Under the pieces are notes generated by a model. That model had not been told where the DNA came from. It saw nothing but the letters and a program-made list of their open reading frames with translations, and did no database searches. From a virus (taxonomy: Duplodnaviria > Caudoviricetes): a stretch of DNA of 28,506 nucleotides. Shown here piece after piece: positions 3-22,449 of the stretch. The DNA lies in IMG/VR virus record IMGVR_UViG_3300047564_004945, positions 1-28,506 of that record; one strand, given 5' to 3'. Within the stretch, counting starts at the first letter, position 1. Every line of letters starts with the position of its first letter. A program made the translations under genes and the position numbers.

Positions 3-596
3 ATTGGAGTAGGAACCACAAACCCATCACAAAAACTTGATGTTTTTGGTAATTTAAGACTGAGAAATGGTCTTATTGATTTCTTCAATAATGTTGGTGC
101 CGCAGGTAGTGTTTTAATTTCTACAGGCGCTGGAGTAAGTTGGTCAGCACAAGCACCAGGAGGAGCAACTTTACAGAATGATGTTGCCACTAATGCAACT
201 TGGTATCCAACTTTAGCTAGTACTACATCTGGTACTTATACCACTGCTTATGTTTCAAATACGAAACTCCAGTATAATCCATCTTCGGGAACGTTATTTG
301 CCACGGTCTTTACTTCTTTATCTGATAGAAATAAGAAAACTAATATTCGCAATATAGATAATTCTATAGAAATTGTAAAACAATTAGATGGAGTAAGATT
401 TGATTGGGTAGAAGATGGTAGTCCTTCAATTGGTGTTATAGCACAAGATATTGAAAAAGTATTGCCGGAAGTTGTCCAAACAAATGACGACGGAATGAAG
501 ACGGTTTCCTATGGAAATATAATAGGAGTACTAATTGAAGCAATCAAAGAACAACAAATTCGCATAGAAGAATTGGAGAAAAAAGTAAATGCCTAA
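3..596 (+). CDS. Tail fibre protein, 3' part (5'-truncated by window), with C-terminal peptidase S74 / intramolecular chaperone domain
   Basis: Not in the ORF track. Frame 3 is open from the window start: IGVGTTNPSQKLDVFGNLR...YNPSSGTLFATVFTSL-SDRNKKTNIRNIDNSIEIVKQLDGVRFDW...IGVIAQDIEKVLPEVV...VSYGNIIGVLIEAIKEQQIRIEELEKKVNA*. SD-x-x-x-K-x-NI, G(V/L)IAQ and the terminal coiled coil are hallmarks of the S74 autocleaving chaperone. Stop TAA 594-596 overlaps the next ATG (589). Confidence 0.9.
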   Translation: MGVGTTNPSQKLDVFGNLRLRNGLIDFFNNVGAAGSVLISTGAGVSWSAQAPGGATLQNDVATNATWYPTLASTTSGTYTTAYVSNTKLQYNPSSGTLFATVFTSLSDRNKKTNIRNIDNSIEIVKQLDGVRFDWVEDGSPSIGVIAQDIEKVLPEVVQTNDDGMKTVSYGNIIGVLIEAIKEQQIRIEELEKKVNA

Positions 597-3500
597 TCAG
601 TTTTTCTCACCAGAAGGAGATCTTGAAAATTATTTTGTAAATGAGTACTGGTTGATTGATCAGTACATTGGAGATCAGTTGTGGATATGGGGATCTGATG
701 CTTACAGTCATGGACTAGGTATTGGTGTAATAAATTCAAGTAGACAAACTCCAGTTACGACTACTGCCGGTGGGACTAATTGGAAACAAGTTAGTCTTGG
801 ATACGAACATTCTGCTGCTATTAAAACTGATGGAACTCTATGGACTTGGGGTACAGCTAGATTTTTGGGTAATGGAGATACCACTAACAATAAATCTACT
901 CCAATTACCACCTTTGCTGGTGGAACTGATTGGAAGCAAATTACAACTAGTAGAAGTGCCTCATTTGCGATCAAAAATGATGGAACTTTATGGACTTGGG
1001 GATATATTGGAATAGCGGGAGTTAATCTGTCATCTTTTATACATTTAAGCACTCCTGTCACTACCTTTGCCGGTGGAACTAATTGGAGGTCGGTTTCTGG
1101 AGGTGCTTTTCATGTAGCGGCAATTAAAACCGATGGAACCTTATGGACTTGGGGTGAGGGAGGTGATGATCAACTTGGAAATGGAAGTGATGATAGCAGA
1201 CTTACTCCAGTTACCACCTTTGCTGGGGGAAATGATTGGAAGCAAGTATCTCCCGGAAGAGCATTTACTGCAGCAATCAAGACTGATGGAACTCTTTGGA
1301 CTTGGGGATTTAATGGATTTAATCCAGATGGACAATTGGGGACAAATGATTCAATTTCTAGATCTACCCCTGTTACCACTTTTGTTGGTGGAACTAACTG
1401 GAAACAAGTATGTGCTGGTGCAAATCATGCAGCAGCAATCAAGACTGATGGAACTCTTTGGACTTGGGGAAATTCTTTGTATGGTCAGTTAGGAAATGGG
1501 CCACTTAGAAGAAGATTTACTCCAGTAACTACCTTTGCCGGAGGAAACAACTGGGCAGATACTCCTACAACAAATCCAGAAGATCTTTATACTTTGAATT
1601 CTGCTGCTAATGGTGGTGCGGCAATCAAGACTGATGGGACTTTATGGATTTGGGGATCTGGTTTTAGTGGGCAACTTGGAAACAATCAATCAGATCTTTC
1701 ATACACTCCAATTACTGTATTTTCTGGTGGAACTAATTGGAAACAAATAAGCACTTCATCTTCTTTTGTATCGGCAATCAAGACTGATGGAACTTTATGG
1801 ACTTGGGGATCTGGAATTAATGGAAGACTTGGAAGGTATACTGCATCTCAAGTAGAGACACCAGTAACTACCTTTGCCGGAGGAAACAACTGGGCAGATA
1901 CTCCTGCAGTAGAACCAGAAGATCTTTATACCTTAAGTGCCGGGGGTAATCATACGGCGGCGATCAAGACCGATGGAACCTTATGGACTTGGGGTAATGG
2001 AATTAATGGACAACTTGGAAATGCCTCAACTTTAATTAACAATTCCACTCCAGTCACCACATTTGCTGGAGGGACCAACTGGAAACAAGTAAGTTCTGGA
2101 AGTAATTTTACGGCAGTAGTTAAGACTGATGGAACTTTATGGGTTTGGGGTGAGGCAAGTAACGGAAAACTTGGTAATAATGTCTTAGATAATAATAAGT
2201 CCACTCCAGTTACTACCTTTGCCGGAGGAACCAATTGGAAACAAGTAAGTGCTGGGACATTTCACACATCAGCAATCAAAACTGATGGAACTCTTTGGAC
2301 TTGGGGTGCTGGAACTAATGCACGACTTGGAACCTTATCTTTGGGGAGCAGAATTACTCCAGTAACTACCTTTGCCGGAGGAAACAACTGGGCAGATACT
2401 CCTACAGTAGAACCAGAAGATCTTTATACCTTAAGTGCCGGGGGTAATCATACGGCGGCGATCAAGACCGATGGAACCTTATGGACTTGGGGTAATGGAA
2501 TTAATGGACAACTTGGAAATGCCTCAACTTTAATTAACAATTCCACTCCAGTCACCACATTTGCTGGAGGGACCAACTGGAAACAAGTAAGTTCTGGAAG
2601 TAATTTTACGGCAGTAGTTAAGACTGATGGAACTTTATGGACTTGGGGATTTGGATCTGGCGGATCTAGCGGTCAACTTGGAAATTCTCAAACAATTGAT
2701 GTATCCACCCCAATTACTACATTTTCCGGTGGAACTAATTGGAAACAAGTAAGTTCTGGAAATGCTCATACTGCAGCAATCAAAACCGATGGAACCTTAT
2801 GGACTTGGGGTGTTACCGGTAATGGTAGACTTGGAAATTCATCAATAAGTGGCATCGTATCTACTCCAGTTACAACATTCGCCGGAGGAACTGACTGGAA
2901 ATATGTTGGATGTGGTAATAATCATACTACAGCAGTTAAGACTGATGGAACCTTATGGGTTTGGGGTGAGGGAATTTCTGGAAAACTTGGTAATAATGCC
3001 ATATCTAATAGGTCCACTCCTATTACCACATTTGCTGGAGGGACCAACTGGAAACAAGCAAGCGGTGGATTAAGTCATTCTGCAGCAGTTAAAACTGATG
3101 GAACATTATGGGCTTGGGGACAAATAACTTTTGGACAAATTGGAAGTGGTGGTGCATCTAGTCCATTAACACCAGTTACCACATTTGCAGGAGGAACTGA
3201 CTGGAAACAAGTTGATTGTGGAAATGTTCATACAGCAGCAATTAAGACCGATGGAACCTTATGGACTTGGGGTTACAATTCCAGAGGGGAACTTGGAATA
3301 AATGATCTAGTAAATAGATCTACACCAGTTACTACCTTTGCCGGAGGAACCAACTGGAAACAAGTGAGTGCATTTTCTTTTACAATGGCACTTAGAGATG
3401 ATGGAGTGAATAAACAACTTTATGTGTGGGGTAATACTTCTAATGGAAGACTTGGAAATTCTAGAACTGGGGAAACACTATTTGAGTATCCTATAGAGGT

Positions 3501-5805
3501 TTACGGATGGTTTACTAATTGGAAACAAGTAAGTTCTGGAAATGCTCATACTGCAGCAATCAAAACCGATGGAACTTTATGGACTTGGGGTACTGCAAGT
3601 AATGGACGACTTGGAAATGCATCTCTAATTAATAGAACCACTCCAGTTACTACCTTTGCCGGAGGAACCGACTGGAAACAAGTAAGTTGTGGAGATGCTC
3701 ATACAGTAGCAATTAAGACCGATGGAACTCTTTGGACTTGGGGTTTGGGGGGTAATGGTCAAATTGGAGATGCCTCAGTTATAAGTACCAGGTCCACTCC
3801 TATTACTACATTTGCCGGAGGAACCAACTGGAAACAAGTGAGTTCTGGTAGTAATTATACTACAGCAGTTAAGACTGATGGAACCTTATGGACTTGGGGT
3901 GCTGGAAATAGTGGAAAACTTGGAAATGCGGACACAACCAGTAGATCCACTCCAGTCACTACATTTGCCGGAGGAACTAACTGGAAACAAGTAAGTTCTG
4001 GTAATGACCATACAGTAGCATTGAGAGATGATGGAGTAAATAAACAACTTTATGTTTGGGGAAATGCAAACCAAGGAAGATTAGGAAATTCTATCATAAA
4101 TGTTACACCATCAGTCTTTACTCCTATTACTACCTTTGCCGGAGGCACCAACTGGAAACAAGTAAGTTCTAGTGGTAATCATACTACAGCAGTAAAGACC
4201 GATGGAACCTTATGGACTTGGGGTTATGGAGCTTTTGGGAGACTTGGAAATGCGGACACGACTAGTAGATCCACTCCAATCACTACATTTGCCGGAGGAA
4301 CCGATTGGAGACAAGTGAGTTCTGGTAATGATCATACTTCGGCAATCAAGACTGATGGAACCTTATGGACTTGGGGATATGGAACTTCTGGACGACTTGG
4401 AAATGCAGTAACAACGGGTAATATATCCACTCCAGTCACTACCTTTGCCGGAGGAACCAACTGGAAACAAGTAAGTTCTGGAAGTAATTTTACGGCAGCA
4501 GTTAAGACTGATGGAACCTTATGGACTTGGGGTAGTAATACTGAAGGACAACTTGGAATTTTTTCTTTTGTTGTTGCTGGATTATCTGCAATATGTAATA
4601 CAACTACTATATTATCTGGAACAACTAGTTTTAATCCCGTACCTAACAATGGTCAAAGAATAATAACAGATGGTTCTGGTGGGATTTTAACTAACATTTC
4701 AACATTGATATTAGGTCCAGCATCTTTGAGTCAATCTACAACTCCAGATTTTAAAAATCCTAGTCCTCAATATGCCCCTGATGATGATGGATTTTGGGAA
4801 TTAACTTTACCCTTTAATATTTCTTATAATGGAGTATCGTATAATAAAATTTATGTAAGTACTAATTCTTATATAACTTTTGGAACAAAACCTGCCGATG
4901 ATTATGATCAAACTATTAATTGGAATTATACAACTGCAACTCCACCAATTCCAAAAATACAAATTTCAACCGCTGATAGATCTGCCCAAAGAATTTATTA
5001 TGGTACGGAAGGAACTTCTCCAAATAGAACTTATCGTGTAAGATTTGAAGGTCATATTTCTTTTCAAAATGGGATACTCGGATCACCAACTTTAGTTTGG
5101 GAAATGGTTTTTTATGAAAATATATCAAATCAAATTGACATTCAACCTGGAATTAATGATGATGCTTCAGGTTCTTTTATCGGCGTTACATCTACTCCGA
5201 TCACTACATTTGCCGGAGGAACCAACTGGAAACAAGTCAGTGCTGGAAATAATAATACATTCGCAATAAAAACTGATGGAACCCTATGGACTTGGGGTTA
5301 TGGAGGATATGGAGAACTTGGGAATGGGATAATAATGGGAACCGATGTAGTAGATGGACGTGTACCTACACCAATTACGACATTTCTTGGAGGAACAAAT
5401 TGGAAACAAGTGCATAGTTCTGGTGGTGTGCAAATTGCTCTTAATGATGATGGTGTAAATAAAAGACTATATGTTTGGGGATCTAATTTTGATGATTATG
5501 AACTTGGACTTGGTAATCCTCAGAATTGGGTTCCAGTAGAAGTTGATGGTAATGCTACTAATTGGAAGCAAGTGGATGGTGGATATGGAAATACGGCAGC
5601 AATCAAGACTGATGGAACCTTATGGACTTGGGGTTATAATGGTGATGGTCAGTTAGGAAATAATACTATACAGAGTTTTCAAAATAGAGCATACACTCCA
5701 ATCACTACGACTGCTGGAGGAACCAACTGGAAACAAGTGTCCTTTGGAAGGATACATGTATCAGCAGTACAATCTGGAATTAATGCAGAATATCCACTCT
5801 CATAA
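589..5805 (+). CDS. Giant RCC1/BLIP-II repeat beta-propeller protein 1 (28 repeats, four predicted nested 7-blade propellers, plus an inserted ~211-aa NIDO-like domain); putative virion adhesin
   Basis: 28 copies of LWxWG-x(n)-G(Q/R)LG-x(n)-TP(V/I)TTFAGGTNWKQVSxGxxHTAAIKTDGT, matching the RCC1 consensus. Overlaps the tail-fibre stop codon. Adhesin role is inferred from context. Confidence 0.9.
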   Translation: MPNQFFSPEGDLENYFVNEYWLIDQYIGDQLWIWGSDAYSHGLGIGVINSSRQTPVTTTAGGTNWKQVSLGYEHSAAIKTDGTLWTWGTARFLGNGDTTNNKSTPITTFAGGTDWKQITTSRSASFAIKNDGTLWTWGYIGIAGVNLSSFIHLSTPVTTFAGGTNWRSVSGGAFHVAAIKTDGTLWTWGEGGDDQLGNGSDDSRLTPVTTFAGGNDWKQVSPGRAFTAAIKTDGTLWTWGFNGFNPDGQLGTNDSISRSTPVTTFVGGTNWKQVCAGANHAAAIKTDGTLWTWGNSLYGQLGNGPLRRRFTPVTTFAGGNNWADTPTTNPEDLYTLNSAANGGAAIKTDGTLWIWGSGFSGQLGNNQSDLSYTPITVFSGGTNWKQISTSSSFVSAIKTDGTLWTWGSGINGRLGRYTASQVETPVTTFAGGNNWADTPAVEPEDLYTLSAGGNHTAAIKTDGTLWTWGNGINGQLGNASTLINNSTPVTTFAGGTNWKQVSSGSNFTAVVKTDGTLWVWGEASNGKLGNNVLDNNKSTPVTTFAGGTNWKQVSAGTFHTSAIKTDGTLWTWGAGTNARLGTLSLGSRITPVTTFAGGNNWADTPTVEPEDLYTLSAGGNHTAAIKTDGTLWTWGNGINGQLGNASTLINNSTPVTTFAGGTNWKQVSSGSNFTAVVKTDGTLWTWGFGSGGSSGQLGNSQTIDVSTPITTFSGGTNWKQVSSGNAHTAAIKTDGTLWTWGVTGNGRLGNSSISGIVSTPVTTFAGGTDWKYVGCGNNHTTAVKTDGTLWVWGEGISGKLGNNAISNRSTPITTFAGGTNWKQASGGLSHSAAVKTDGTLWAWGQITFGQIGSGGASSPLTPVTTFAGGTDWKQVDCGNVHTAAIKTDGTLWTWGYNSRGELGINDLVNRSTPVTTFAGGTNWKQVSAFSFTMALRDDGVNKQLYVWGNTSNGRLGNSRTGETLFEYPIEVYGWFTNWKQVSSGNAHTAAIKTDGTLWTWGTASNGRLGNASLINRTTPVTTFAGGTDWKQVSCGDAHTVAIKTDGTLWTWGLGGNGQIGDASVISTRSTPITTFAGGTNWKQVSSGSNYTTAVKTDGTLWTWGAGNSGKLGNADTTSRSTPVTTFAGGTNWKQVSSGNDHTVALRDDGVNKQLYVWGNANQGRLGNSIINVTPSVFTPITTFAGGTNWKQVSSSGNHTTAVKTDGTLWTWGYGAFGRLGNADTTSRSTPITTFAGGTDWRQVSSGNDHTSAIKTDGTLWTWGYGTSGRLGNAVTTGNISTPVTTFAGGTNWKQVSSGSNFTAAVKTDGTLWTWGSNTEGQLGIFSFVVAGLSAICNTTTILSGTTSFNPVPNNGQRIITDGSGGILTNISTLILGPASLSQSTTPDFKNPSPQYAPDDDGFWELTLPFNISYNGVSYNKIYVSTNSYITFGTKPADDYDQTINWNYTTATPPIPKIQISTADRSAQRIYYGTEGTSPNRTYRVRFEGHISFQNGILGSPTLVWEMVFYENISNQIDIQPGINDDASGSFIGVTSTPITTFAGGTNWKQVSAGNNNTFAIKTDGTLWTWGYGGYGELGNGIIMGTDVVDGRVPTPITTFLGGTNWKQVHSSGGVQIALNDDGVNKRLYVWGSNFDDYELGLGNPQNWVPVEVDGNATNWKQVDGGYGNTAAIKTDGTLWTWGYNGDGQLGNNTIQSFQNRAYTPITTTAGGTNWKQVSFGRIHVSAVQSGINAEYPLS
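1861..2640 (+). repeat. 282-bp direct repeat (1861-2142 and 2359-2640) within RCC1 gene 1
   Basis: By-eye alignment: offset 498 bp, one mismatch seen (G1906 vs A2404). A partial third copy lies at 9197-9330 in gene 2. Confidence 0.9.
4561..5193 (+). other. In-frame non-RCC1 insertion domain (NIDO/nidogen-G1-like beta-rich domain) within gene 1
   Basis: ~211 aa between GQLGI and TPITTFAGG of repeat 25. Contains DDDGFWELTLPFNISYNGVSYNKIYVSTNSYITFG and GTSPNRTYRVRF, recalling the DD..LPF.F.F.G..Y..(I/V)YV.TNG.I.F motif of NIDO-associated domains. Confidence 0.6.
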
Positions 5806-5825: not shown

Positions 5826-6575
5826 ATGGAAATCGCATTAATTCATAATAACTCATTAATACTTGGACCAATGGGACTAAATGTGCGTATGATTAATAGC
5901 GAATTGGAAGATCTTGAACTTGAAGATCGTATATCTTCTCAAAGTTTTAGAGATCTTCCAATTCATTTTTCGGATGGTTTAAGTCATCTTGTTTCGATAG
6001 AAAAAGAAATACCAATACATGATCTTAAATATCATAATATTGGCAATTACGCCTGGGAAATTGTAGAAGAAAATAATGTTCCGGTCAGTGTTAAATTAAC
6101 TTATACTATTATAGATAAAACTTTGGAAGAAGTCAAAGAACTTCGTAAAAAAGAAATTGCACCAATAAGAAAAAATAAAGAAAATACAGTTGCTAAAATT
6201 TTTGTTAATGGAAATCCTGTAGAAATATCAACTTCAAGAGAAGAGAGATTATTGCTAACTTCGAAATTATCTTCATTCACTGGGACTTGTAATTATAAAT
6301 TTAAAAATACTTGGGCATCAATTACTCCACAAAATCTTCAACAAATTATTGGAGAAATTGATGTAGTAGTTCAGCAGGCATTTGATTGGGAATTGCAAAA
6401 AATAAACGAAATAGATGAATGTGAAACTATTGATGATGTTTATAATGTTGTTTTGCTTGAAGATAAAGTTATGGAGAGAATGAAAAGAAATATGGAATCA
6501 AAAAATAAAAAAAAGTTGAGTTTATATGAATCCAATTCCAGTTCCGAATTAAATTCAGATTTTAATAATAATTAA
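5826..6575 (+). CDS. DUF4376-like phage tail-fibre-associated protein
   Basis: C-terminal half KTLEEVKELRKKEIAPIRKNKE...WASITPQNLQQIIGEIDVVVQQAFDWELQKINEIDECETIDDV resembles the helical DUF4376 pattern found next to tail-fibre genes. Confidence 0.65.
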   Translation: MEIALIHNNSLILGPMGLNVRMINSELEDLELEDRISSQSFRDLPIHFSDGLSHLVSIEKEIPIHDLKYHNIGNYAWEIVEENNVPVSVKLTYTIIDKTLEEVKELRKKEIAPIRKNKENTVAKIFVNGNPVEISTSREERLLLTSKLSSFTGTCNYKFKNTWASITPQNLQQIIGEIDVVVQQAFDWELQKINEIDECETIDDVYNVVLLEDKVMERMKRNMESKNKKKLSLYESNSSSELNSDFNNN

Positions 6576-6580
6576 AAACT

Positions 6581-9500
6581 ATGTCTTCCAATAGAGTTCA
6601 AACTAATTTTAGAGATAGTGATGGTATTGACTTAGGAACTAAATTAATTACCAAAGATTATTTGATCAGTGTCTATCCGGAGATTGGTCAGCAAATTGGA
6701 ATTCCTCCAGAACTTTGGATGTGGGGACAAGCAGGTTCAGGAAGACTCGGAAATAGAATTGCAACAGGTAGTATATCTACTCCAGTCACTACATTTACTG
6801 GAGGAACTGATTGGAAACAAGTAAGTACTGGTGCAAATAATACATTCGCAATAAAAACTGATGGAACCTTATGGTCTTGGGGATCAATTGTTACTTCAGT
6901 TCAATTTAATTCTTCATCTTCTGTTCCCAGAAGCGTTCCAATTACTGCTTTTTCTGGTGAAACTAATTGGAAACAAGTAAGTACTGGACAATTTAGTACA
7001 GCAGCAATCAAAACTGATGGAACTCTATGGTTTTGGGGTTCTAATTTTTCCAGAGTTTTTGGAAATAATGCTGTTTTAGGATCAGTAAATCCAGTTACTA
7101 CATTATATACCCAAGGAAGTTGGAAACAAGTAAGTCTTTCAAGTGATGAAATAGCAGCAATTAAGACTGATGGAACCTTATGGACTTGGGGTAGTAGCTC
7201 TGCTTCTTCTAACCTTGGTAGACCATATCCAGATTTTTATATATCAACACCAATCACCGTATCTTCTGGAGGAACTAACTGGGCAATTGTTGATACAGAT
7301 CCAGAAAATCTTTATACCTTAAGTGCTGGATTTCAACATACAGCAGCAATCAAAACTGATGGAACTCTATGGACTTGGGGTAATGGATTATATGGAAGAC
7401 TTGGAAATGCAGTAACGACAGGCAATGCATCCACTCCAGTTACTACATTTACTGGAGGAACCAACTGGAGGCAAGTAAGTGGTGGGGATCTTCATACCGC
7501 AGCAATTAAGACCGATGGAACCCTATGGACTTGGAGTTTTGGGGGAGATGGGCAACTTGGAAATGCAGATATAACCAATAAATCCACTCCCGTCACTACA
7601 TTTACTGGGGGAACGAACTGGAAACAAGTAAGCTCCGGACTTTATCATACATCAGCAATCAAGACTGATGGAACTCTATGGACTTGGGGAGTAGGAAATT
7701 ATGGCCAACTTGGAAATGCAATAATAACAGGCAATAGATCCACTCCAACCACAACATTTGCCGGTGGAACCAATTGGAAACAAGTAAGTTCTGGACTTCG
7801 TTATACCACAGCAATTAAGACTGATGGAACCTTATGGACTTGGGGATATGGAACTTCTGGACGACTTGGAAATGCAGTAACAACGGGTAATATATCCACT
7901 CCAGTCACTACCTTTGCTGGAGGAACCAATTGGAGACAAGTAAGTGGTGGAGGTGAACATACAACTGCAATCAAGACCGATGGAACCCTATGGACTTGGG
8001 GTGGTGGAAATTCTGGACAACTTGGAAATACGGGCATAACTAATAGATCTACTCCAGTCACCACATTTGCCGGGGGAACTAATTGGAAACAAGTCAATGC
8101 TGGAGGTTTTCATACAGCAGCAATCAAGACTGATGGAACCTTATGGACTTGGGGTGATGGTGGTTTGGGGGCACTTGGGAATTTCCAAGTAACTTTTAGA
8201 TCCACTCCAATCACCACATTTGCAGGAGGATCTAATTGGAAACAAGTAAGTTCGGGAAGTGCTCGTACAATGGCATTAAGGGATGATGGAGTTAATAAAG
8301 AACTTTTTACTTGGGGTAATGGATTATATGGAAGTCTTGGAAATGCAGATATAACCGATAGATCCACTCCTGTTACCACATTTGTCGGAGGAACCAACTG
8401 GGCAGATATAGATACTGATCCGGAAAATCTTTATACTTTATCTATATCGAGAGAAAGATCTGCCGCAATCAAGACTGATGGAACTCTATGGGTTTGGGGG
8501 AATGGGTCTTATTATTTGGGAATAGGTGATAATATAGAGTATACTTTTACACCAGTCACTACATTTACTGGAGGAATCAACTGGAAACAAATAAGTGTTG
8601 GATACAATCATACAGCAGCAATCAAAACCGATGGAACTTTGTGGACATGGGGAAGAAGTCAAGATGTTGGTATTGTTATTTTTAATATTAGTACTCCGGC
8701 AACTACCTTTGCTGGAGGAAACAACTGGGCAGATACTCCTACAGTAGAACCAGAAGATCTTTATACCTTAAGTGCTGGAAATTTACATACTTCTGCAATT
8801 AAGACTGATGGAACCCTATGGGCTTGGGGTAGTGCATCTTTAGGAACACTCGGAAATGCAGTCGCATCAGGTAATATATCTACTCCAGTAACCACATTTG
8901 CCGGAGGAACCAACTGGAAACAAATAAGTGGTGGAAATTCTCATACATCAGCAATCAAGACTGATGGAACCCTATGGACTTGGGGTAATGGATTTAATGG
9001 AAGACTCGGAAATAGAATTGCAACAGGGTCTAGATCTACTCCAATCACTACATTTGCCGGAGGAACCGATTGGAAACAAGTGAGTTCTGGTAATGATCAT
9101 ACTTCGGCAATCAAGACTGATGGAACTTTATGGACTTGGGGTAGTGGAACTAATGGACAACTTGGAAGACCGCAATTTATATCTGCAATAAGTACTCCAG
9201 TAACTACCTTTGCCGGAGGAAATAACTGGGCAGATACTCCTACAGTAGAACCGGAAGATCTTTATACCTTAAGTGCCGGGGGTAAACATACGGCGGCGAT
9301 CAAGACCGATGGAACCTTATGGACTTGGGGAGATAATGTCTATGGTCAACTCGGAACTAATGATTTATTTAGTAAAATAACTCCCGTCACTACATTTTCT
9401 GGAGGCACTAACTGGAAACAAATTTCTTGTAATGTTTATACGGAAGCAACTCCTTTCGGAGAAAGTATTTTTGCAATTAAAACCGATGGAACTTTATGGG

Positions 9501-12500
9501 GATGGGGTTCAAATGGTTCTGATAATTTTGGTAGACTTGGCATTAATTCAAGTATTAATATTAATATATCCACTCCAATTACTACATTTGCTGGAGGAAC
9601 TAATTGGAAACAAGTTTCATGCAAATACAACCACGTTTGTGCAATTAAGACTGATGGAACCTTATGGGTTTGGGGTACAGGAAATTTTGGAAGACTTGGA
9701 ACTAATAATCAATCAAATAACCTAACACCAGTTACTACATTCTCTGGAGGAACTAATTGGAAACAAGTTAGTGCTGGAGCATTTCATACGGTAGCAATCA
9801 AAACCGATGGAACCTTATGGACTTGGGGTATTAATAATAATAGACAACTTGGATTGAATACTGATACTGCCAATAAACTAACACCAGTTACTACCTTTGC
9901 CGGAGGAACCGACTGGAAACAAGTCAGTTCTGGTATTAATCAGACGGCAGCAGTTAAAACCGATGGAACCTTATGGGTTTGGGGTAATGGAGTTAATGGA
10001 CGACTTGGAAATGGCATTATAACAGGTAATAGATCTACTCCAGTCACTACATTTGCTGGAGGAACTAATTGGAAACAAGTGAGTTCTGGTAATGACCATA
10101 CAGCAGCAGTCAAAACCGATGGAACTCTTTGGACCTGGGGATTTGGAGGTTCTGGAAAACTTGGAAATTTGGTAGCGGTAGGTCTTAGTGTATCCACTCC
10201 TGTTACTACATTTGCCGGAGGAACTAACTGGAAACAAGTAAGTTCTGGTAATGACCATACAGTAGCATTGAGAGATGATGGAGTAAATAAGCAACTTTAT
10301 GTTTGGGGAAATACTAATTTATTAGCAGTAAATATTCTAAATGATAATGAACCAAAAACAACATTTACTGGAGGAACCAACTGGAAACAAGTGAGTTCTG
10401 GAAATCAACATACAGTAGCAGTCAAGACCGATGGAACCTTATGGACTTGGGGTTATGGATCTTTTGGGAGACTTGGAAATGCGGACACGACTAGTAGATC
10501 CACTCCAGTCACTACATTTACTGGAGGAACTGATTGGAGACAAGTAGGTTCCGGAAGTTTACATACATCAGCAATCAAAACTGATGGAACTCTTTGGACT
10601 TGGGGTAATGGAAATTCCGGAAGACTTGGAAATGCAGTAACAACCAATGTATCCACTCCTGTTACTACCTTTGCCGGAGGAACCAACTGGAAACAAATAA
10701 ATGTTGGACCTGGACATAATGCTGCAATTAAGACCGATGGAACCTTGTGGACTTGGGGTAATGGAATTAGTGGACGACTTGGAAATGCCTCAACTTCAAT
10801 TATCAACTCCACTCCTATTACCACATTTGCCGGAGGAACCAACTGGAAACAAGTAAGTTCTGGCACCAATCATACAGTAGCACTTTTTGATGATGGAGTA
10901 AATAAAAGATTATATTCATTTGGAGATATTACATATACTGGAACAGGATCAATACGATTTTTTGTTCCTACTCTTATTGATAATAATGTCAACTGGAAGC
11001 AAGTAAGTGCTGGATCTAGGCATACAGCAGCAGTTAAAAATGATGGAACTTTATGGGTTTGGGGTAATGGAACTACTGGGGCTCTTGGTGGGTTTTCTTC
11101 ATTTAATAGATTTACTCCAACCACAACATTTGCCGGAGGAACCAATTGGAAACAAGTAAGTTCTGGAGATGCTCATACAGCAGCAATTAAGACCGATGGA
11201 ACCTTATGGACTTGGGGTCGTGGAACTTATGGAAGACTTGGAAATGGTATTGTAACTGGTGATAGACTTACTCCAGTCACCACATTCGCCGGAGGAACCA
11301 ACTGGAAACAAGTGAGTGCTGGGGCTCTTCATACATCAGCAATCAAGACCGATGGAACCTTGTGGACTTGGGGTAATGGAATTAGTGGACGACTTGGAAA
11401 TGCCTCAACTTCAATTATCAACTCCACTCCTGTTACTACATTTGCCGGAGGAACCAACTGGAAACAAGTCAGTGCTGGAGAACTTCATACGGCAGCAATT
11501 AAGACTGATGGAACCTTATGGACTTGGGGTTATGGAAATTCTGGACAACTTGGAAATACGGGCATAACTAATAGATCTACTCCAGTCACCACATTTGCCG
11601 GGGGAACTAATTGGAAACAAGTCTTTACCAGTCTTTCTCATACAATAGCACTTAAAGATGATGGAATTAATAAGGAATTGTATATATTTGGTGAAAATAA
11701 TTATTTAATAGGGAATACTAATTCAACTACTAGTAATGGAAATATTCCTGCAACTACCTTTGCTGGTGGAACCAACTGGAAACAAGTAAGTATTTCGGGA
11801 AGAAATACGGCAGCAGTTAAAAATGATGGAACTCTATGGACTTGGGGTCTTAATGCAAAAGGAGAACTTGGAAATACTAAAACAGAAGAGAGATCAACTC
11901 CAGTAACTACCTTTGCCGGTGGAACTAATTGGAAACAAGTGGATGTTGGATACAATCATACAGTAGCAATCAAGACAGATGGAACTCTATGGACTTGGGG
12001 TTATGATTCGAATTTAGGAATTGGATCATTATTATTTGAGCAATATACTAGTACTCCAATAACTACTTTTGCCGGTGGAACTAACTGGGCAAATACGCCA
12101 ACATCAAATCCAGAAGATCTTTATACTATATCATCTTCATCAGGATTTAGTTTTGAGTTTGATTATGCATCGATGGCAATTAAGACCGATGGAACTTTAT
12201 GGGTTTGGGGCACAAATCAATATGGATCATTGGGTACAAATAATACGAATAATGCTTTTACACCAGTTACCACATTCACAGGGGGGACAAATTGGAAGCA
12301 AATAGTAGCAGGATATTATACTACGGCAGCAATTAAGACCGATGGAACTCTATGGACTTGGGGAGTGGAATTTGATGGTAGACTTGGTAATAATAAAGTT
12401 TCATCTGCAAATGTGCTTACTCCAATCACTACATTTGCGGGAGGATCTAATTGGAAACAAGTGAGTACTGGATATTCTGCAACTGGAGCAATTAAGACCG

Positions 12501-13456
12501 ATGGCACTTTATGGTTATGGGGTTATAATATAAATGGGCAAGTTGGTAATAATAATGATATTGAAGTTAATACTCCAGTCACCACATTTGCCGGAGGAAC
12601 CAACTGGAAACAAATAAGTTGTGGAGGATATACAACCGCAGCAATCAAAACTGATGGGACATTATGGGTTTGGGGTGCTAATTTTTATGGTCAACTTGGA
12701 GATCTTGGTTATGGATTTCAATCTCTTACTCCAATCACTACTTTTGCCGGTGGAACTAATTGGAAACAAGTAAGTTCTGGACAAAGTCACATTGCGGCAG
12801 TTAAGACTGATGGAACCTTATGGTTATGGGGAACGAATAGAAACGGAGAACTTGGAAATGGTGAATCTAATACATTTACAGATGTAGTTACTCCAATCAC
12901 TACTTTTGCCGGTGGAACTAACTGGAAACAAGTAAGTTGTGGAGGGGAACTATCGGATTCACGTTATTCATCTACAGCAGCAATTAAGACTGATGGAACT
13001 CTATGGACTTGGGGGTATAATTATTCTGGAGTATTAGGTATAAACACTACAGACAATTCATCTACTCCGGTAACTACATTTGCTGGTGGAACTGATTGGG
13101 TACAAGTTTCTACATCTGCATCAAGTACTTTAGCACTTAAAAATAATGGATCTTTATATGTTTTTGGAGTTACAGCATCCTTGGGAGTTAATTATTCAAA
13201 TGTTGTTAGTACTCCATCCACCACATTTGCAGGAGGATCTAATTGGAAACAAGTGAGTAGTTCGTATTCAACGGGAGCAATCAAAACTGATGGAACTCTA
13301 TGGACTTGGGGTCTTGCCGGAGCCGGTAAACTTGGAAACGGGACAATAATAGGTTCTATATTATCTCCGATTACCACATTTGCAGGTGGAACTGATTGGA
13401 AACAAGTAAGTATTGGTCCAAATAATGCAGCAGCAATCAAGTCCGTAGATTTTTGA
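6581..13456 (+). CDS. Giant RCC1/BLIP-II repeat beta-propeller protein 2 (42 repeats, six predicted 7-blade propellers, branched/nested); putative virion adhesin
   Basis: 42 RCC1-type repeats with the same scaffold as gene 1, after a 44-aa N-terminal leader with no signal-peptide-like hydrophobic core. Confidence 0.9.
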   Translation: MSSNRVQTNFRDSDGIDLGTKLITKDYLISVYPEIGQQIGIPPELWMWGQAGSGRLGNRIATGSISTPVTTFTGGTDWKQVSTGANNTFAIKTDGTLWSWGSIVTSVQFNSSSSVPRSVPITAFSGETNWKQVSTGQFSTAAIKTDGTLWFWGSNFSRVFGNNAVLGSVNPVTTLYTQGSWKQVSLSSDEIAAIKTDGTLWTWGSSSASSNLGRPYPDFYISTPITVSSGGTNWAIVDTDPENLYTLSAGFQHTAAIKTDGTLWTWGNGLYGRLGNAVTTGNASTPVTTFTGGTNWRQVSGGDLHTAAIKTDGTLWTWSFGGDGQLGNADITNKSTPVTTFTGGTNWKQVSSGLYHTSAIKTDGTLWTWGVGNYGQLGNAIITGNRSTPTTTFAGGTNWKQVSSGLRYTTAIKTDGTLWTWGYGTSGRLGNAVTTGNISTPVTTFAGGTNWRQVSGGGEHTTAIKTDGTLWTWGGGNSGQLGNTGITNRSTPVTTFAGGTNWKQVNAGGFHTAAIKTDGTLWTWGDGGLGALGNFQVTFRSTPITTFAGGSNWKQVSSGSARTMALRDDGVNKELFTWGNGLYGSLGNADITDRSTPVTTFVGGTNWADIDTDPENLYTLSISRERSAAIKTDGTLWVWGNGSYYLGIGDNIEYTFTPVTTFTGGINWKQISVGYNHTAAIKTDGTLWTWGRSQDVGIVIFNISTPATTFAGGNNWADTPTVEPEDLYTLSAGNLHTSAIKTDGTLWAWGSASLGTLGNAVASGNISTPVTTFAGGTNWKQISGGNSHTSAIKTDGTLWTWGNGFNGRLGNRIATGSRSTPITTFAGGTDWKQVSSGNDHTSAIKTDGTLWTWGSGTNGQLGRPQFISAISTPVTTFAGGNNWADTPTVEPEDLYTLSAGGKHTAAIKTDGTLWTWGDNVYGQLGTNDLFSKITPVTTFSGGTNWKQISCNVYTEATPFGESIFAIKTDGTLWGWGSNGSDNFGRLGINSSININISTPITTFAGGTNWKQVSCKYNHVCAIKTDGTLWVWGTGNFGRLGTNNQSNNLTPVTTFSGGTNWKQVSAGAFHTVAIKTDGTLWTWGINNNRQLGLNTDTANKLTPVTTFAGGTDWKQVSSGINQTAAVKTDGTLWVWGNGVNGRLGNGIITGNRSTPVTTFAGGTNWKQVSSGNDHTAAVKTDGTLWTWGFGGSGKLGNLVAVGLSVSTPVTTFAGGTNWKQVSSGNDHTVALRDDGVNKQLYVWGNTNLLAVNILNDNEPKTTFTGGTNWKQVSSGNQHTVAVKTDGTLWTWGYGSFGRLGNADTTSRSTPVTTFTGGTDWRQVGSGSLHTSAIKTDGTLWTWGNGNSGRLGNAVTTNVSTPVTTFAGGTNWKQINVGPGHNAAIKTDGTLWTWGNGISGRLGNASTSIINSTPITTFAGGTNWKQVSSGTNHTVALFDDGVNKRLYSFGDITYTGTGSIRFFVPTLIDNNVNWKQVSAGSRHTAAVKNDGTLWVWGNGTTGALGGFSSFNRFTPTTTFAGGTNWKQVSSGDAHTAAIKTDGTLWTWGRGTYGRLGNGIVTGDRLTPVTTFAGGTNWKQVSAGALHTSAIKTDGTLWTWGNGISGRLGNASTSIINSTPVTTFAGGTNWKQVSAGELHTAAIKTDGTLWTWGYGNSGQLGNTGITNRSTPVTTFAGGTNWKQVFTSLSHTIALKDDGINKELYIFGENNYLIGNTNSTTSNGNIPATTFAGGTNWKQVSISGRNTAAVKNDGTLWTWGLNAKGELGNTKTEERSTPVTTFAGGTNWKQVDVGYNHTVAIKTDGTLWTWGYDSNLGIGSLLFEQYTSTPITTFAGGTNWANTPTSNPEDLYTISSSSGFSFEFDYASMAIKTDGTLWVWGTNQYGSLGTNNTNNAFTPVTTFTGGTNWKQIVAGYYTTAAIKTDGTLWTWGVEFDGRLGNNKVSSANVLTPITTFAGGSNWKQVSTGYSATGAIKTDGTLWLWGYNINGQVGNNNDIEVNTPVTTFAGGTNWKQISCGGYTTAAIKTDGTLWVWGANFYGQLGDLGYGFQSLTPITTFAGGTNWKQVSSGQSHIAAVKTDGTLWLWGTNRNGELGNGESNTFTDVVTPITTFAGGTNWKQVSCGGELSDSRYSSTAAIKTDGTLWTWGYNYSGVLGINTTDNSSTPVTTFAGGTDWVQVSTSASSTLALKNNGSLYVFGVTASLGVNYSNVVSTPSTTFAGGSNWKQVSSSYSTGAIKTDGTLWTWGLAGAGKLGNGTIIGSILSPITTFAGGTDWKQVSIGPNNAAAIKSVDF

Positions 13457-17793: not shown

Positions 17794-20700
17794 ATGCCAA
17801 CATTTTATAACTTTACACAAGACGGTCTTACATATAGTTTTGATGATATTTTCGTCAAAGCAGATTTGTTTCGCCAAGGAAATTTGTGGAATTGGGGTAG
17901 AGGTGTAGCAGGAGCTCTTGGTGATGGGTTTTCTAATAGTTTTAGATCGACTCCAATTACCACATTTGTTGGTGGTAGTAATTGGAAACAAATTAGTACC
18001 GGAGGTCAGCATACTGTAGCAGTTAAGACTGATGGAACTTTATGGGTTTGGGGGTATAATAATAGAGGACAACTTGGAAATGCATCTATAACTGATAGAT
18101 CAACTCCAGTTACCACCTTTGCCGGGGGAAACGATTGGAAACAGGCAGAAGGTGGAACTAGTCATACAGTAGCCATTAAAACTGATGGAACTTTATGGTC
18201 TTGGGGTATGAATGATCAAGGTCAACTTGGGGTAAATGCTAGAGATAATAGTAGTCCTTTTAGTAGATCAACTCCAGTAACTACTTTTGTTGGTGGAACT
18301 AATTGGAAACAAGCAAGTGCTGGATATCAATATTCTGCGGCAATTAAGACTGATGGAACTTTATGGACTTGGGGATATGCATATTTTGGACAATTAGGTA
18401 AAGGTGGTTTTTATACATTAGTTAGATCCACTCCAATGACAACATTTGCCGGTGGTAATAACTGGGCAGATACTTCGGATACTTATTCGCCAGAAGATCT
18501 TTATACTATAGGTGGTGGAACTTTTTTTAATTTAGCAGTTAAAAATAATGGAACATTATGGACTTGGGGTTATGGATATCGAGGACAACTTGGAAATGCA
18601 ACTATTGCAACTAATATTTCTACTCCGATTACAACTTTTTCTGGTGGAACTAATTGGAAAGAAATAAGTGCTGGAAATGATCATGTTGCAGCAATCAAGA
18701 CTGATGGAACATTATGGGTGTGGGGATATGCAAATAACGGCCAACTCGGAACAAGTGATTTAATACCACAAAGATCTACTCCAATCACAACCTTTGCCGG
18801 AGGAACCAACTGGAAACAAATAAGTTCTGGAAATAATAATACTGCAGCAATCAAAACTGATGGAACATTATGGACTTGGGGTGGTGGATTTAGTGGAGAA
18901 CTTGGAAATGCAGATACAACTCTTAGATCCACTCCAATAACCACATTTACTGGAGGAACCGATTGGAAGCAAGTAAGTGTTGGATCAGGTCACTTAATAG
19001 CAATTAAGACTGATGGAACCTTATGGACTTGGGGTAATAGTAACTTTGGACAACTTGGAAATGCGTCTTCAGTTAAAACATCAACTCCAGTCACAACATT
19101 TGCCGGAGGAACTAACTGGAAACAAGTGAGTGCTGGTCTTTATAGTTCTACGGCAATTAAGACTGATGGAACCCTGTGGACTTGGGGTATGGGAAGTAAT
19201 GGAAAACTCGGAACTAATCAAGTATCTTCCTCATCTACTCCAGTCACCACTTTTGCCGGAGGAACCAACTGGAAACAAGTTAGCTCCGGTGGTTATCATA
19301 CATCCGCAGTAAAAACCGATGGAACCTTATGGACTTGGGGGTTTAATCTTTATGGACAAATCGGAAATGCAAGTGTAAATCAATCATTAACGCCAGTTAC
19401 CACTTTTATTGGGGGAACTGATTGGAAACAGGTTTATTCTTCATGGCAATCTACATTAGCAATAAAGGATGATGGATTTAATACACGTCTTTATTTGTTT
19501 GGTAGAAATTATAATGCAGAACTTGGAAATAAGGATATAGGAACTATAACAGGAAATATATCTACTCCAGTCACCACCTTTGCCGGAGGAACTGACTGGG
19601 CAACAGTTGAAACAGATCTTTATACTTTAAGTGCTGGAGGATCTTCTTCTTCGGCAATCAAAACCGATGGAACTTTATGGACTTGGGGGAATAACGGTCG
19701 TGGACAACTTGGAAATGGTTCTACAACAAATAGATCAACTCCTATTACTACATTTGCCGGTGGAACAAATTGGATACAAGTTAGTAGTACATCTCAGCAT
19801 AGTGCAGCAATTAAGACCGATGGAACCCTATGGACTTGGGGTAATGGAACTTTTGGACGACTTGGAAATGCAGTTACAACTAATGCATCTACTCCAGTCA
19901 CAACATTTGCCGGAGGAACAAACTGGAAACAAGTGAGTTGCCGTGATGATACTACAGTAGCTGCTCATACCGCAGCAATCAAGACCGATGGAACCTTATG
20001 GGTTTGGGGTTTTGGTGGTAATGGAAGACTTGGAAATGGTGTTACTAATTTTAGTGGTACATCAACTCCAATCACCACCTTTGCCGGAGGAAGCGACTGG
20101 AAACAAGTAAGTTGTGGATTTACTTATACAGTAGCAATTAAGACTAATGGAACATTATGGGCTTGGGGTACGTGTCAAAATGGAGCACTTGGAAATGGAG
20201 TCATAACAGGTAATATATCTACACCAATCACCACATTTACAGGAGGAACCAACTGGAGACAAGTGAGTGCTGGTTTTGATACTACATCAGCAATTAAGAC
20301 TGATGGAACCTTATGGGTTTGGGGTTCGGGAGGTCGTGGGACACTTGGAAATGGAATAACAGCAAATGGTAGATCCACCCCAATCACCACATTTGCAGGA
20401 GGAACTAACTGGAGACAAGTGAGTGCTGGATCGCAGCATATAGCAGCAGTCAAAACTGACGGAACATTATGGACTTGGGGTTATACAAAAGGTGGGCAAC
20501 TTGGTATTGGATATGGGGCGTATGATTTTGGTAGTACTATTGAGTATAATGTAAGATCCACTCCTGTTACCACATTTGTCGGAGGATCTAACTGGAAACA
20601 AGTTAGTGCTGGAGGTCAGCATACAGTAGCACTCAATGATGATGGTGCAAATAAAAGATTGTACACCTGGGGATATAATCGAGATAATCAAATTGGAGAT

Positions 20701-22449
20701 AGTTTTTTTGTTGAGATTAATGATGCTCCTGGAAAAGTGGGGGATAGTTCTAATTGGAAACAAGTTTCTTGTTCATATCATTCTACTGCTGCACTTAAAA
20801 CTGATGGAACTCTTTGGACTTGGGGGGATAATGCACAAGGTCAACTTGGGACTGCTCAATTATTTAAAGGTAGTGCTGAACCAATTACTACATTTGCCGG
20901 AGGAACCGACTGGAAACAAGTCAGTGCCGGTGGATATTATTCAGTAAACATGATGGCAGCAATTAAAAATGATGCGACTTTATGGACTTGGGGTAATTCA
21001 TATCTTGGAATACTTGGAAATACAAAGTCTCCTCTTTCCACTGCACCCGAAACTGAACTTTATGTGTCTACTCCAATCACCACATTTGCCGGAGGAATAG
21101 ACTGGAAACAAGTCAGTGCCGGTGGATATCATATGTCGGCAGTTAAAACAAATGGAACTCTATGGACTTGGGGTAGTGGTACTCAGTATCAATTAGGTAT
21201 AGGATATGATCCTCTTCAACCATCTAGATCGACACCAGTCACAACATTTGCCGGAGGAACTAATTGGAAGTCCGTTGGATCTTCTGGAGGATACAATGTT
21301 TCTGCCATACAATACAACGATATTCTCACAAATCCACCAGATGTGTTTAGGTTATTTACTTGGGGTTATGGATTTACTGCTGCTCTTGGAAATGCATCAG
21401 ATGCATCAAATTCTTCCGTACCAATTACAACATTTGCTGGAGGAAGTAATTGGAGGCAGGTAAGTGTAGCAAGAGATGTTACATGTGCAATCAAAACTGA
21501 TGGAACTTTATGGATATGGGGAGATGCTGCAAGCGGTTTACTTGGTAATGGATTAACAACAGGTTTTATATCCACTCCAATCACCACATTCTCTGGAGGA
21601 ACTAATTGGAAACAAGTCAGTATTGAAACTTACCACGCAGCAGCAATCAAAACTGATGGTACTCTTTGGACTTGGGGAGAAGGATTTGCTGGTTATCTTG
21701 GAACTAATGATTTAAATGATAGATCAACTCCAGTCACAACATTTGCCGGAGGAACTAATTGGAAACAAGTTTCTTCAGGAAGATATCACGTAGCAGCAAT
21801 TAAAACTGATGGAACTCTATGGACTTGGGGTGGTAATGCTGATGGTGAACTTGGAAATGCATCTACATCTAATACATCTATATCCACCCCAATCACCACA
21901 TTTGCCGGAGGGACCAACTGGAAACAAGTCGCTGGTGGTTATGCACATACAGCAGCAATCAAGACTGATGGAACTTTATGGACTTGGGGTCTAGGTCAAG
22001 ATGGAAGAATTGGAAATGCAGTTATAACAAACACTAGCGTATCAACGCCAGTTACTACCTTTGCCGGAGGGACTAATTGGGAACAAGTTTCTTGTGGAAG
22101 TTTGCATGTAGCAGCAATCAAAACTGATGGAACTTTGTGGACTTGGGGAGGTACAGCATCTGGAGCACTTGGAGATGGTACTGCTTCTTTTTTAATTGGT
22201 CGTTCAACTCCAATTACAACGTTTGCCGGAGGAACCAACTGGAAACAAATAGGTGCTGGAGGATATTGTACTGCTGCAATTAAAACAGATGGAACTCTAT
22301 GGACTTGGGGAGTTGGAGATGATGGAAGACTTGGAAATAGAGTAACAACCGGTGATATATCCACTCCAGTCACTACATTTGCTGGAGGAACTAATTGGGA
22401 AAGTTTGGAATGTGGATATAATAGAGTTGGTACAATCAGAAAAAATTAA
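17794..22449 (+). CDS. Giant RCC1/BLIP-II repeat beta-propeller protein 3 (28 repeats, four predicted 7-blade propellers); putative virion adhesin
   Basis: 28 RCC1-type repeats with the same scaffold as genes 1 and 2, after a 30-aa leader. Confidence 0.9.
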   Translation: MPTFYNFTQDGLTYSFDDIFVKADLFRQGNLWNWGRGVAGALGDGFSNSFRSTPITTFVGGSNWKQISTGGQHTVAVKTDGTLWVWGYNNRGQLGNASITDRSTPVTTFAGGNDWKQAEGGTSHTVAIKTDGTLWSWGMNDQGQLGVNARDNSSPFSRSTPVTTFVGGTNWKQASAGYQYSAAIKTDGTLWTWGYAYFGQLGKGGFYTLVRSTPMTTFAGGNNWADTSDTYSPEDLYTIGGGTFFNLAVKNNGTLWTWGYGYRGQLGNATIATNISTPITTFSGGTNWKEISAGNDHVAAIKTDGTLWVWGYANNGQLGTSDLIPQRSTPITTFAGGTNWKQISSGNNNTAAIKTDGTLWTWGGGFSGELGNADTTLRSTPITTFTGGTDWKQVSVGSGHLIAIKTDGTLWTWGNSNFGQLGNASSVKTSTPVTTFAGGTNWKQVSAGLYSSTAIKTDGTLWTWGMGSNGKLGTNQVSSSSTPVTTFAGGTNWKQVSSGGYHTSAVKTDGTLWTWGFNLYGQIGNASVNQSLTPVTTFIGGTDWKQVYSSWQSTLAIKDDGFNTRLYLFGRNYNAELGNKDIGTITGNISTPVTTFAGGTDWATVETDLYTLSAGGSSSSAIKTDGTLWTWGNNGRGQLGNGSTTNRSTPITTFAGGTNWIQVSSTSQHSAAIKTDGTLWTWGNGTFGRLGNAVTTNASTPVTTFAGGTNWKQVSCRDDTTVAAHTAAIKTDGTLWVWGFGGNGRLGNGVTNFSGTSTPITTFAGGSDWKQVSCGFTYTVAIKTNGTLWAWGTCQNGALGNGVITGNISTPITTFTGGTNWRQVSAGFDTTSAIKTDGTLWVWGSGGRGTLGNGITANGRSTPITTFAGGTNWRQVSAGSQHIAAVKTDGTLWTWGYTKGGQLGIGYGAYDFGSTIEYNVRSTPVTTFVGGSNWKQVSAGGQHTVALNDDGANKRLYTWGYNRDNQIGDSFFVEINDAPGKVGDSSNWKQVSCSYHSTAALKTDGTLWTWGDNAQGQLGTAQLFKGSAEPITTFAGGTDWKQVSAGGYYSVNMMAAIKNDATLWTWGNSYLGILGNTKSPLSTAPETELYVSTPITTFAGGIDWKQVSAGGYHMSAVKTNGTLWTWGSGTQYQLGIGYDPLQPSRSTPVTTFAGGTNWKSVGSSGGYNVSAIQYNDILTNPPDVFRLFTWGYGFTAALGNASDASNSSVPITTFAGGSNWRQVSVARDVTCAIKTDGTLWIWGDAASGLLGNGLTTGFISTPITTFSGGTNWKQVSIETYHAAAIKTDGTLWTWGEGFAGYLGTNDLNDRSTPVTTFAGGTNWKQVSSGRYHVAAIKTDGTLWTWGGNADGELGNASTSNTSISTPITTFAGGTNWKQVAGGYAHTAAIKTDGTLWTWGLGQDGRIGNAVITNTSVSTPVTTFAGGTNWEQVSCGSLHVAAIKTDGTLWTWGGTASGALGDGTASFLIGRSTPITTFAGGTNWKQIGAGGYCTAAIKTDGTLWTWGVGDDGRLGNRVTTGDISTPVTTFAGGTNWESLECGYNRVGTIRKN

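Follow-up and report, generated by a model that had tools for sequence, protein, structure and literature searches.

How does a single polypeptide made of 28 nearly identical RCC1 repeats find its fold? The question is raised by gene 1 of IMG/VR virus record IMGVR_UViG_3300047564_004945 (Duplodnaviria; Caudoviricetes), of which we analysed positions 1 to 28,506, a stretch of 28,506 nucleotides (nt) hereafter called the window. Gene 1 is the open reading frame (ORF) at 589–5805 on the plus strand and encodes 1738 residues. An initial annotation, made from the sequence alone, had read two motifs in this gene, OPEN and CLOSE, as the brackets of a four-level nesting, in which the chain runs out through three half-built propellers and then returns to complete them. 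We consider it very probable that the 28 repeats fold as four seven-bladed propellers, nested one within another. The explanation as a whole, namely nested propellers that fold in the manner of a stack and form a many-headed, host-binding part of the virion, we hold to be probable.

The repeats of gene 1 form balanced brackets

By profile search gene 1 matches the Pfam families PF00415 (RCC1; E 2e-188) and PF13540 (RCC1_2; E 3e-167), with PF25390 (WD40_RLD) also above the cut-off. Split at strand A, the protein yields 28 A-B hairpins and 28 C strands. In an OPEN linker the Trp of strand A is kept and is followed by about 10 residues, mostly acidic, Thr or Pro, and then by LYTL in place of WKQV. 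The CLOSE motif, AL[RN]DDGVNK[QR]LY, has its Leu in strand B and a Tyr that replaces the first Trp of strand C, and the B-C loop of CLOSE blades has seven residues instead of the usual four. The OPEN motifs, approximately placed by the initial annotation, lie at exactly 1552, 1891 and 2389, where they head repeats 6, 8 and 11; the CLOSE motifs lie at exactly 3388, 4018 and 5437, in repeats 17, 21 and 26.

Parsing these marks as brackets recovers the hairpin sets that had been proposed: ring C consists of repeats 11–17 (7), ring B of 8–10 and 18–21 (3+4), ring A of 6–7 and 22–26 (2+5), and the root of 1–5 and 27–28 (5+2), so that every level sums to seven. When three OPEN and three CLOSE marks are placed among 27 whole repeats, only 819 of the 2925 × 2925 placements balance to seven on every level (p = 9.6e-5).

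Given that 28 is four times seven, and that the OPEN of repeat 8 and the CLOSE of repeat 21 fall on tandem boundaries, the gene might instead encode four ordinary tandem propellers (repeats 1–7, 8–14, 15–21 and 22–28), with OPEN and CLOSE as decorative loop variants. Repeats 7, 14, 15 and 22, however, carry no linker, while a true tandem junction in gene 3 of the same window, which serves as an internal control, shows a long B-C linker. Together with the homolog counts and the structural model given below, these features make a tandem layout highly improbable.

Most homologs obey the sum of seven

We pooled 120 homologous proteins with 123 ORFs from 51 loci, giving 181 distinct sequences, of which 109 passed the family filter. 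With three of the window's own and six incomplete sequences set aside, 40 complete genes without OPEN and 60 with OPEN were left. Among the former, 39 of 40 have exactly seven repeats, and the other has six. For the latter, we used a stack rule that takes as input only the positions of OPEN and a ring size of seven, and gives as output the blade predicted to close each ring. The CLOSE signature is found on 134 of the 150 blades so predicted, versus 17 of 1259 other blades, and the parse is perfect in 47 of the 60 complete non-window homologs, which span 26 architectures of two to six levels. Taking one protein per architecture string (n = 39), we find 91 matches out of 107, while shuffling the OPEN positions gave at most 26 in 5000 shuffles. 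Ring sizes other than seven fare poorly (27/182 for five, 19/146 for six, 4/90 for eight and 10/70 for nine), and the tandem reading, which would put the CLOSE signature at every seventh repeat, accounts for 15 of 109.

Several points weigh against this reading of the homologs. Thirteen of the 60 parse imperfectly: in four (L012, P0004, P0014 and P0063) the parser seems to have missed degenerate motifs, P0039 ends out of frame, P0077 and L026 are internally deleted copies of P0057, P0013 and L018 contain inner six-repeat spans, and the remaining four belong to none of these groups. Inner OPEN-to-CLOSE spans of six repeats, seen in P0013, L018 (2931) and the held-out L122 (14-2017), may be six-bladed rings, defective alleles or the product of assembly collapse. 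The homologs share ancestry, and thus their counts overstate independence. Furthermore, the motif rules had been tuned with homolog strings already seen, and we therefore froze them and ran them on 81 further loci. This held-out set is small: it contributed 27 new family ORFs, of which five were complete, nested and shared fewer than 70% of their words. The frozen parser read three of these five perfectly, and the innermost span was seven in 9 of 10 cases.

The OPEN, CLOSE and linker wording of the window is absent from all 120 of 120 longer relatives. These include giant RCC1 relatives of 3,000–4,850 residues, among them P0121, in which recurrent shortened repeats may be the brackets of another dialect.

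Predicted structure of the two inner rings

We obtained an AlphaFold2 model of residues 435–1188 of gene 1 (repeats 8–21) from 13 in-register alignment rows, leaving out a 28-row alignment in which the outer register was lost and a 19-row alignment of mixed architectures. Topology was read from the ranges over which known chains superpose on the model. UVR8 (chain 8gqe_B) superposes on model residues 174–540, corresponding to repeats 11–17, with Z 34.3, a root-mean-square deviation (rmsd) of 2.8 and 335 aligned residues; a further UVR8 fit covers residues 176–526 (Z 35.0, rmsd 2.6, 334 aligned). Chain 8gqe_B also superposes on residues 8–734 with just 309 residues aligned (Z 35.3, rmsd 2.4), and repeats 8–10 and 18–21 therefore lie in one ring of the model. 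BLIP-II and three more chains span the model in the same way as this last fit. A tandem range (about 1–386 or 387–754), though open to the model, is taken by none of the 100 superposition rows listed. Thus the contact between repeats 8–10 and 18–21 that the nested layout demands is present in the fragment model, at a predicted local distance difference test (pLDDT) score of about 55.

In this low-confidence model rings B and C both have the seven-bladed propeller fold, and each is predicted to be a UVR8-like propeller. Modelled ring B and the seven-sum rule alike point to one domain built from homologous blades in distant segments of the chain. The predicted closures of the root and of ring A rest on sequence, the two ends of gene 1 being those found in single-propeller alleles at this locus. 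Four-level nesting is accordingly backed by the seven-sum of the homologs, by termini held in common with single-propeller alleles, and by the model of the inner two rings.

It is important to note what weighs on the other side. The mean pLDDT is 54.8 and the predicted template modelling score 0.46; by element, pLDDT is about 60–79 in strands A to C and falls below 50 in the linkers and D strands. The ends of the fragment and the 13 alignment rows were picked to suit a 3+7+4 layout, and the best of five models alone was examined. Velcro-type chains align from model residues 136–157 to about 505–517, so that ring C may take up strand D of repeat 10, which leaves the seam open to question; that stretch has pLDDT 28–43. 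An AlphaFold2 model of the three-level homolog P0048, from nine rows, reached pLDDT 32.3, and blade covariation was alike in split neighbours (z 1.7) and non-neighbours (z 1.8).

We also folded repeats 8–17 and 18–21 as two chains, which gave a score of 0.40, while the best of three controls gave 0.00. Between runs at least 85% of the contacts are the same, the partner pLDDT is at least 76, and no interface is given. In a benchmark, scores of 0.60 or below that reached the mark came from 18 of 157 solved complexes and from the two mismatches that passed (2/215). The two-chain score may reflect likeness to solved propellers; being compatible with the tandem layout too, it does not tell nested from tandem, and it lends the nested layout weak support.

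Could the split rings be completed between chains rather than within one? Fibres with an S74 chaperone are trimers, the fibre encoded next to gene 1 has such a chaperone, and near-identical blades could pair across chains, giving a domain-swapped oligomer on a trimeric fibre tip. We find this very unlikely, because the seven-sum within single chains over 26 architectures is a prediction of intrachain closure, and the single-chain model closes ring B.

Where the chain probably crosses between rings

The B-C turn ahead of each OPEN is an ordinary four-residue turn, and a four-residue B-C turn is kept in 12 of 124 CLOSE blades; an inter-domain link is thus unlikely at either place. The D-to-A link that follows CLOSE behaves differently. 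Of 114 returns to the parent, 26 have it in canonical form, versus 9 of 10 cases that precede a sibling OPEN, and elsewhere such links are canonical in 85–98%; this link feature played no part in selection. As the link is altered on return to the parent, both crossings are most likely D-to-A links, and the chain probably leaves the child ring after strand D of the CLOSE repeat. An exit at the CLOSE loop was judged less likely in view of the link and B-C turn data. On this reading the two-stranded links of the initial annotation would be two crossing D-to-A links, with the exit moved from the CLOSE loop to the end of strand D.

UVR8 is an open propeller and RCC1 a velcro-closed one, according to the available text of PMC4617170. 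The first strand of UVR8 is strand A, and its register matches that of the OPEN strand. Register and superposition both suit child rings of the UVR8 type, with the reservation that strand D of repeat 10 possibly lies on ring C. This reservation is the root of another explanation, in which the nesting is right and the seam differs, parent and child being stapled by a swap of strands, with strand D of repeat 10 completing blade 17 and strand D of repeat 17 completing blade 10, or by a swapped C-D hairpin. The fits of velcro-type RCC1 and WD40 chains do bring strand D of repeat 10 close to ring C, and Trp is lost in the C strand of CLOSE blades and also in the first C strand after the gene 3 tandem junction. 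On the other hand, the model stretch concerned is the one with pLDDT 28–43, and the UVR8 rows run to model residue 540 within ring C; the ordinary pre-OPEN turn, the 12 CLOSE blades with a four-residue turn and a post-CLOSE link that is altered just on return to the parent also argue against it. A swapped seam is, we think, unlikely.

The geometry of further insertions fits a seam between strand A of the OPEN repeat and strand D of the CLOSE repeat. Insertions into child rings adjoin the ring's own seam in 1 of 33 cases versus 11 expected (p 2.7e-5, the insertions not being independent), and wherever a ring has two seam positions (10 of 10 rings), a distance of two blades or more separates them. 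In gene 1 the angle between entry and exit is about 103 degrees in ring A and 154 degrees in ring B. Since ring A is entered and left just two blades apart, a bent chain is expected; of the four-bead stalk envisaged earlier, the four rings in a chain remain predicted, in a bent rather than a straight arrangement.

A duplication and an insert within gene 1

An exact-block search found a 282-nt duplicate with one mismatch, 1861–2142 versus 2359–2640, which links repeats 7–9 and 10–12. The duplicate raises the question of whether the repeat order is an artefact of assembly. Unitigs do not bridge it, contigs from four runs cover parts of gene 1 with no listed piece spanning the gene (a point that counts against our layout), and some homologs, such as P0077 and L026, are deleted copies. 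Yet record L001, which may not be an independent sample, has the same gene and repeat order with one 21-nt gap within the first 282-nt copy, and errors of assembly would be expected to disrupt the seven-sum rather than to produce it in 47 proteins. We find an artefact hardly credible.

An insert of about 210 residues, not remarked in the initial annotation, occupies the C-D loop of repeat 24 and has the appearance of a mobile loop module. Neither Pfam nor PHROG gave a family for it, and the best PDB sequence match has E 0.54; a NIDO cluster in the Atlas, at 0.81, is a lead only. Similar inserts occur at other slots and depths in 6 of 51 loci, and also in P0004, P0014 and P0019.

Alleles of the locus share their ends and differ in inner content

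Related loci have a fixed gene order: an S74 fibre gene, RCC1-a, a DUF4376-like gene, RCC1-b, an enzyme-like block and RCC1-c. The 51 loci are trimmed by contig ends and flanks; of them, 33 have S74 hits, 37 contain the DUF4376-like gene, and 48 contain the gene that follows RCC1-b. The N- and C-terminal wording of the RCC1 genes is slot-specific and identical in single-propeller and nested alleles, and gene 1 has both termini of slot a. Allele sizes in the same slots range from 393 to 2936 residues.

Ring position was tested in 39 ordered pairs from 18 proteins: in 44 of 107 tests, against 5.9 expected, a root blade displaced by an insertion found its best match in a relative of another architecture at the same place in the ring. 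For example, repeats 1–5 and 27 of gene 1 match repeats 1–5 and 20 of P0076, the inner content of which differs. Blade-by-blade orthology of the inner rings mostly failed, because the loops turn over fast. One cassette can nevertheless be followed at different depths, repeats 19–23 of P0021 being shared with P0043, where they are 15–19. On a tree of a neighbouring gene (28 rows) the nested state requires six changes, of which at least four are forced, the labels depending on the extent of locus covered. P0023, P0032 and P0018 are close relatives with one root, the contents of which are sibling, nested or doubly nested.

Gene 2 follows the same bracket rule, and within it lies the 2+5(3+4(7)) subtree known from gene 1; genes 1 and 2 also have near-exact DNA blocks of 77–138 nt in common. 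Such blocks, within gene 1 and between the two genes, fit recombination as the builder. At the internal tandem junction of gene 3 we found the wording usual for the C-terminus of its slot. The coordinates of all features are collected in Table 1.

Table 1. Features of the window; ring assignments are those of the predicted nested layout
Feature	Position	Strand	Remark
Tail-fibre gene, 3' end, with Peptidase_S74 chaperone domain (E 3.8e-16)	3..596	+	last codons overlap gene 1 start
N-terminal leader of gene 1	589..672	+	same leader in single-propeller and nested alleles of first RCC1 slot
N-terminal C-D hairpin, predicted partner of hairpin 28 (root velcro closure)	673..780	+	
Root, repeats 1-5	781..1551	+	in register with root of homolog P0076
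Ring A, repeats 6-7; OPEN linker 1552-1596	1552..1890	+	
Ring B, repeats 8-10; OPEN linker 1891-1935	1891..2388	+	one ring with 18-21 in the model
Ring C, repeats 11-17; OPEN linker 2389-2433, CLOSE motif 3388-3423	2389..3519	+	UVR8 superposition
Ring B, repeats 18-21; CLOSE motif 4018-4053	3520..4152	+	model
Ring A, repeats 22-26; CLOSE motif 5437-5472	4153..5562	+	
Insert of about 210 residues, C-D loop of repeat 24	4558..5187	+	NIDO-like lead only
Root, repeat 27, hairpin 28 and slot-specific C-terminal tail	5563..5805	+	
DUF4376-like tail-associated gene	5826..6575	+	phrog_10508, E 2.2e-6
Gene 2, 42 repeats, same bracket grammar	6581..13456	+	branched tree, six rings
Gene 3, 28 repeats	17794..22449	+	root with two sibling children, then true tandem propeller

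The phage and the likely role of gene 1

Among 50,697 phage records the closest cultured relative is Synechococcus phage S-SRM01, to which the repeats are 61% and a neighbouring gene 66% identical; the two also agree in gene order and in the wording of the repeats. The four runs holding gene 1 are freshwater metagenomes from two studies; there is no RNA run among those listed as holding the gene. The source is likely a freshwater T4-like cyanophage, with the Serangoonvirus-like Kyanoviridae as a candidate placement on the basis of the synteny and identities shared with S-SRM01.

As a gp38-like adhesin would, gene 1 immediately follows a distal fibre gene that has a chaperone at its C-terminus, and the corresponding fibre gene of S-SRM01, ahead of its RCC1 slot, is labelled 'long tail fiber protein distal subunit'. 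The gp38 of phage S16 has a binding domain of glycine-rich motifs, as described in the available part of PMC9608196. Gene 1 is built of RCC1 repeats and is thus not a gp38 by fold, and may just fill that role. Its N-terminal leader possibly serves for attachment to the virion. Variability is located in the A-B and C-D loops, at sites that reach 3.3 bits (scaffold sites are fixed by the pattern used), and at most of the variable loop sites the first and second codon positions exceed the third. In a propeller of this type, B-C turns and D-A links are on one face, and A-B and C-D loops on the other.

We lean towards the gene 1 product being a putative host-binding part of the virion, on the basis of its position, its loop variability and the virion-associated RCC1-like proteins of coliphage phAPEC6, which appear in the virion proteome table of that phage (PMC7247149, available portion). 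The same architecture could alternatively act as an internal or intracellular scaffold, ordering DNA or serving as partner of neighbouring modifying enzymes. The phAPEC6 authors proposed DNA ordering, and call the prokaryotic function unknown, in that same portion of their paper, and genes 2 and 3 stand among oxygenase- and transferase-like genes. However, a place between a fibre gene and a DUF4376-like gene, fast-changing loops and alleles of such unequal size suit an exposed binder, and we regard the scaffold as doubtful. The 'chromosome condensation' annotation that such genes receive would reflect repeat similarity only, as Ran exchange or nucleosome binding is not expected in a phage of bacteria.

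Conserved enzyme-like blocks lie between and behind the RCC1 slots (13487–17777 and 22491–28268) and include two 2OG-Fe(II) oxygenases; labels in the matching region of S-SRM01 are TPR protein, sulfotransferase and glycosyltransferase. As a matter of speculation, these neighbours might modify the propellers, which are rich in Ser, Thr and Asn.

How the rings might fold and multiply

That near-identical blades should find the right partners is a real problem in principle, as the initial annotation had pointed out, and may be solved by tethering. We propose that the root is the ancestral propeller, shut in the RCC1 style by the N-terminal C-D hairpin and hairpin 28, and that each child is an open, UVR8-style ring running from strand A after OPEN to strand D of the CLOSE repeat, so that every propeller would sit inside a blade-to-blade link of the preceding one. 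The OPEN linker would keep the growing arc from taking the next blade and begin a new arc, with a tether of about 10 residues tying the child's entry to the parent's last blade; the CLOSE blade would then fit against the OPEN blade and shut the newest ring. With the exit beside the entry, and the entry tethered to the parent, the chain would return to the newest unfinished ring. Such a last-in-first-out return would require no blade-specific code.

In evolution, recombination among the conserved DNA of the repeats would move OPEN-to-CLOSE cassettes into any link, and selection would retain alleles that sum to seven. As the links would occupy the conserved face, all four rings would keep their variable A-B and C-D loops free for binding. 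More tentatively, the locus as a whole may represent a generative grammar, with motifs that push and pop, folding by stack, and cassette-built trees of up to seven or more propellers, which would make a reconfigurable, multivalent host-recognition head of the tail; we offer this as a possibility, somewhat short of an even chance.

If the fold is confirmed, the alleles would form a natural series on how near-identical repeats find their partners in discontinuous domains, and would yield a design rule by which one chain could be made into a branched, multivalent binder. Through the cultured relative S-SRM01, the RCC1 genes of cyanophages, which lack an explanation, would become open to study.

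Comparison with known systems

We found no description of nested RCC1 propellers in the literature, judged mostly from titles and with few subscription papers covered. PMC12906663 was discarded as a source on RCC1, its 'RCC1' matches being strain numbers. Copies of one domain formed by an out-and-back chain are already known from Si3; readable brackets and many tree shapes we did not find described in the same literature.

The Si3 region of cyanobacterial RNA polymerase has eight SBHM copies, several of them made from distant chain segments (PMC10895346, as far as the available text goes). It resembles gene 1 in containing copies of one domain along an out-and-back chain, not in tandem. It differs in fold and role, the domains of gene 1 being other than SBHM, and the part of that source available to us gives one arrangement, against at least 26 different trees carried by related phages here. 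Phage tail sheath proteins likewise have a core made from both termini, with domains added between, formed from the outgoing and returning chain (PMC9230969). In the accessible text of that source, the added domains are mostly immunoglobulin-like, unlike the core, and no repeat grammar is described.

Propellers completed by two distant halves are also known. In the triple propeller of DDB1, BPB is inserted into BPC, and AMBRA1 has a split WD40 domain (the latter from the available text of PMC10665379). In both, there is one fixed insertion, no recursion and blades that are not interchangeable. Closer at hand, gp335, gp337 and gp344 of S-SRM01, with 6, 7 and 7 repeats and no OPEN, have the same gene order and repeat wording as the window, and the RCC1-like proteins of phAPEC6 are associated with the virion.

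With RCC1 and UVR8 themselves, gene 1 has in common the type of repeat and the seven blades, its root being seemingly RCC1-like and its children UVR8-like. RCC1 and UVR8, however, are single domains, whereas gene 1 appears to combine both types of closure, with rings inserted into rings and OPEN and CLOSE marks to delimit them. Repeat proteins are usually read as tandem strings; here the layout would be a tree, readable from two motifs.

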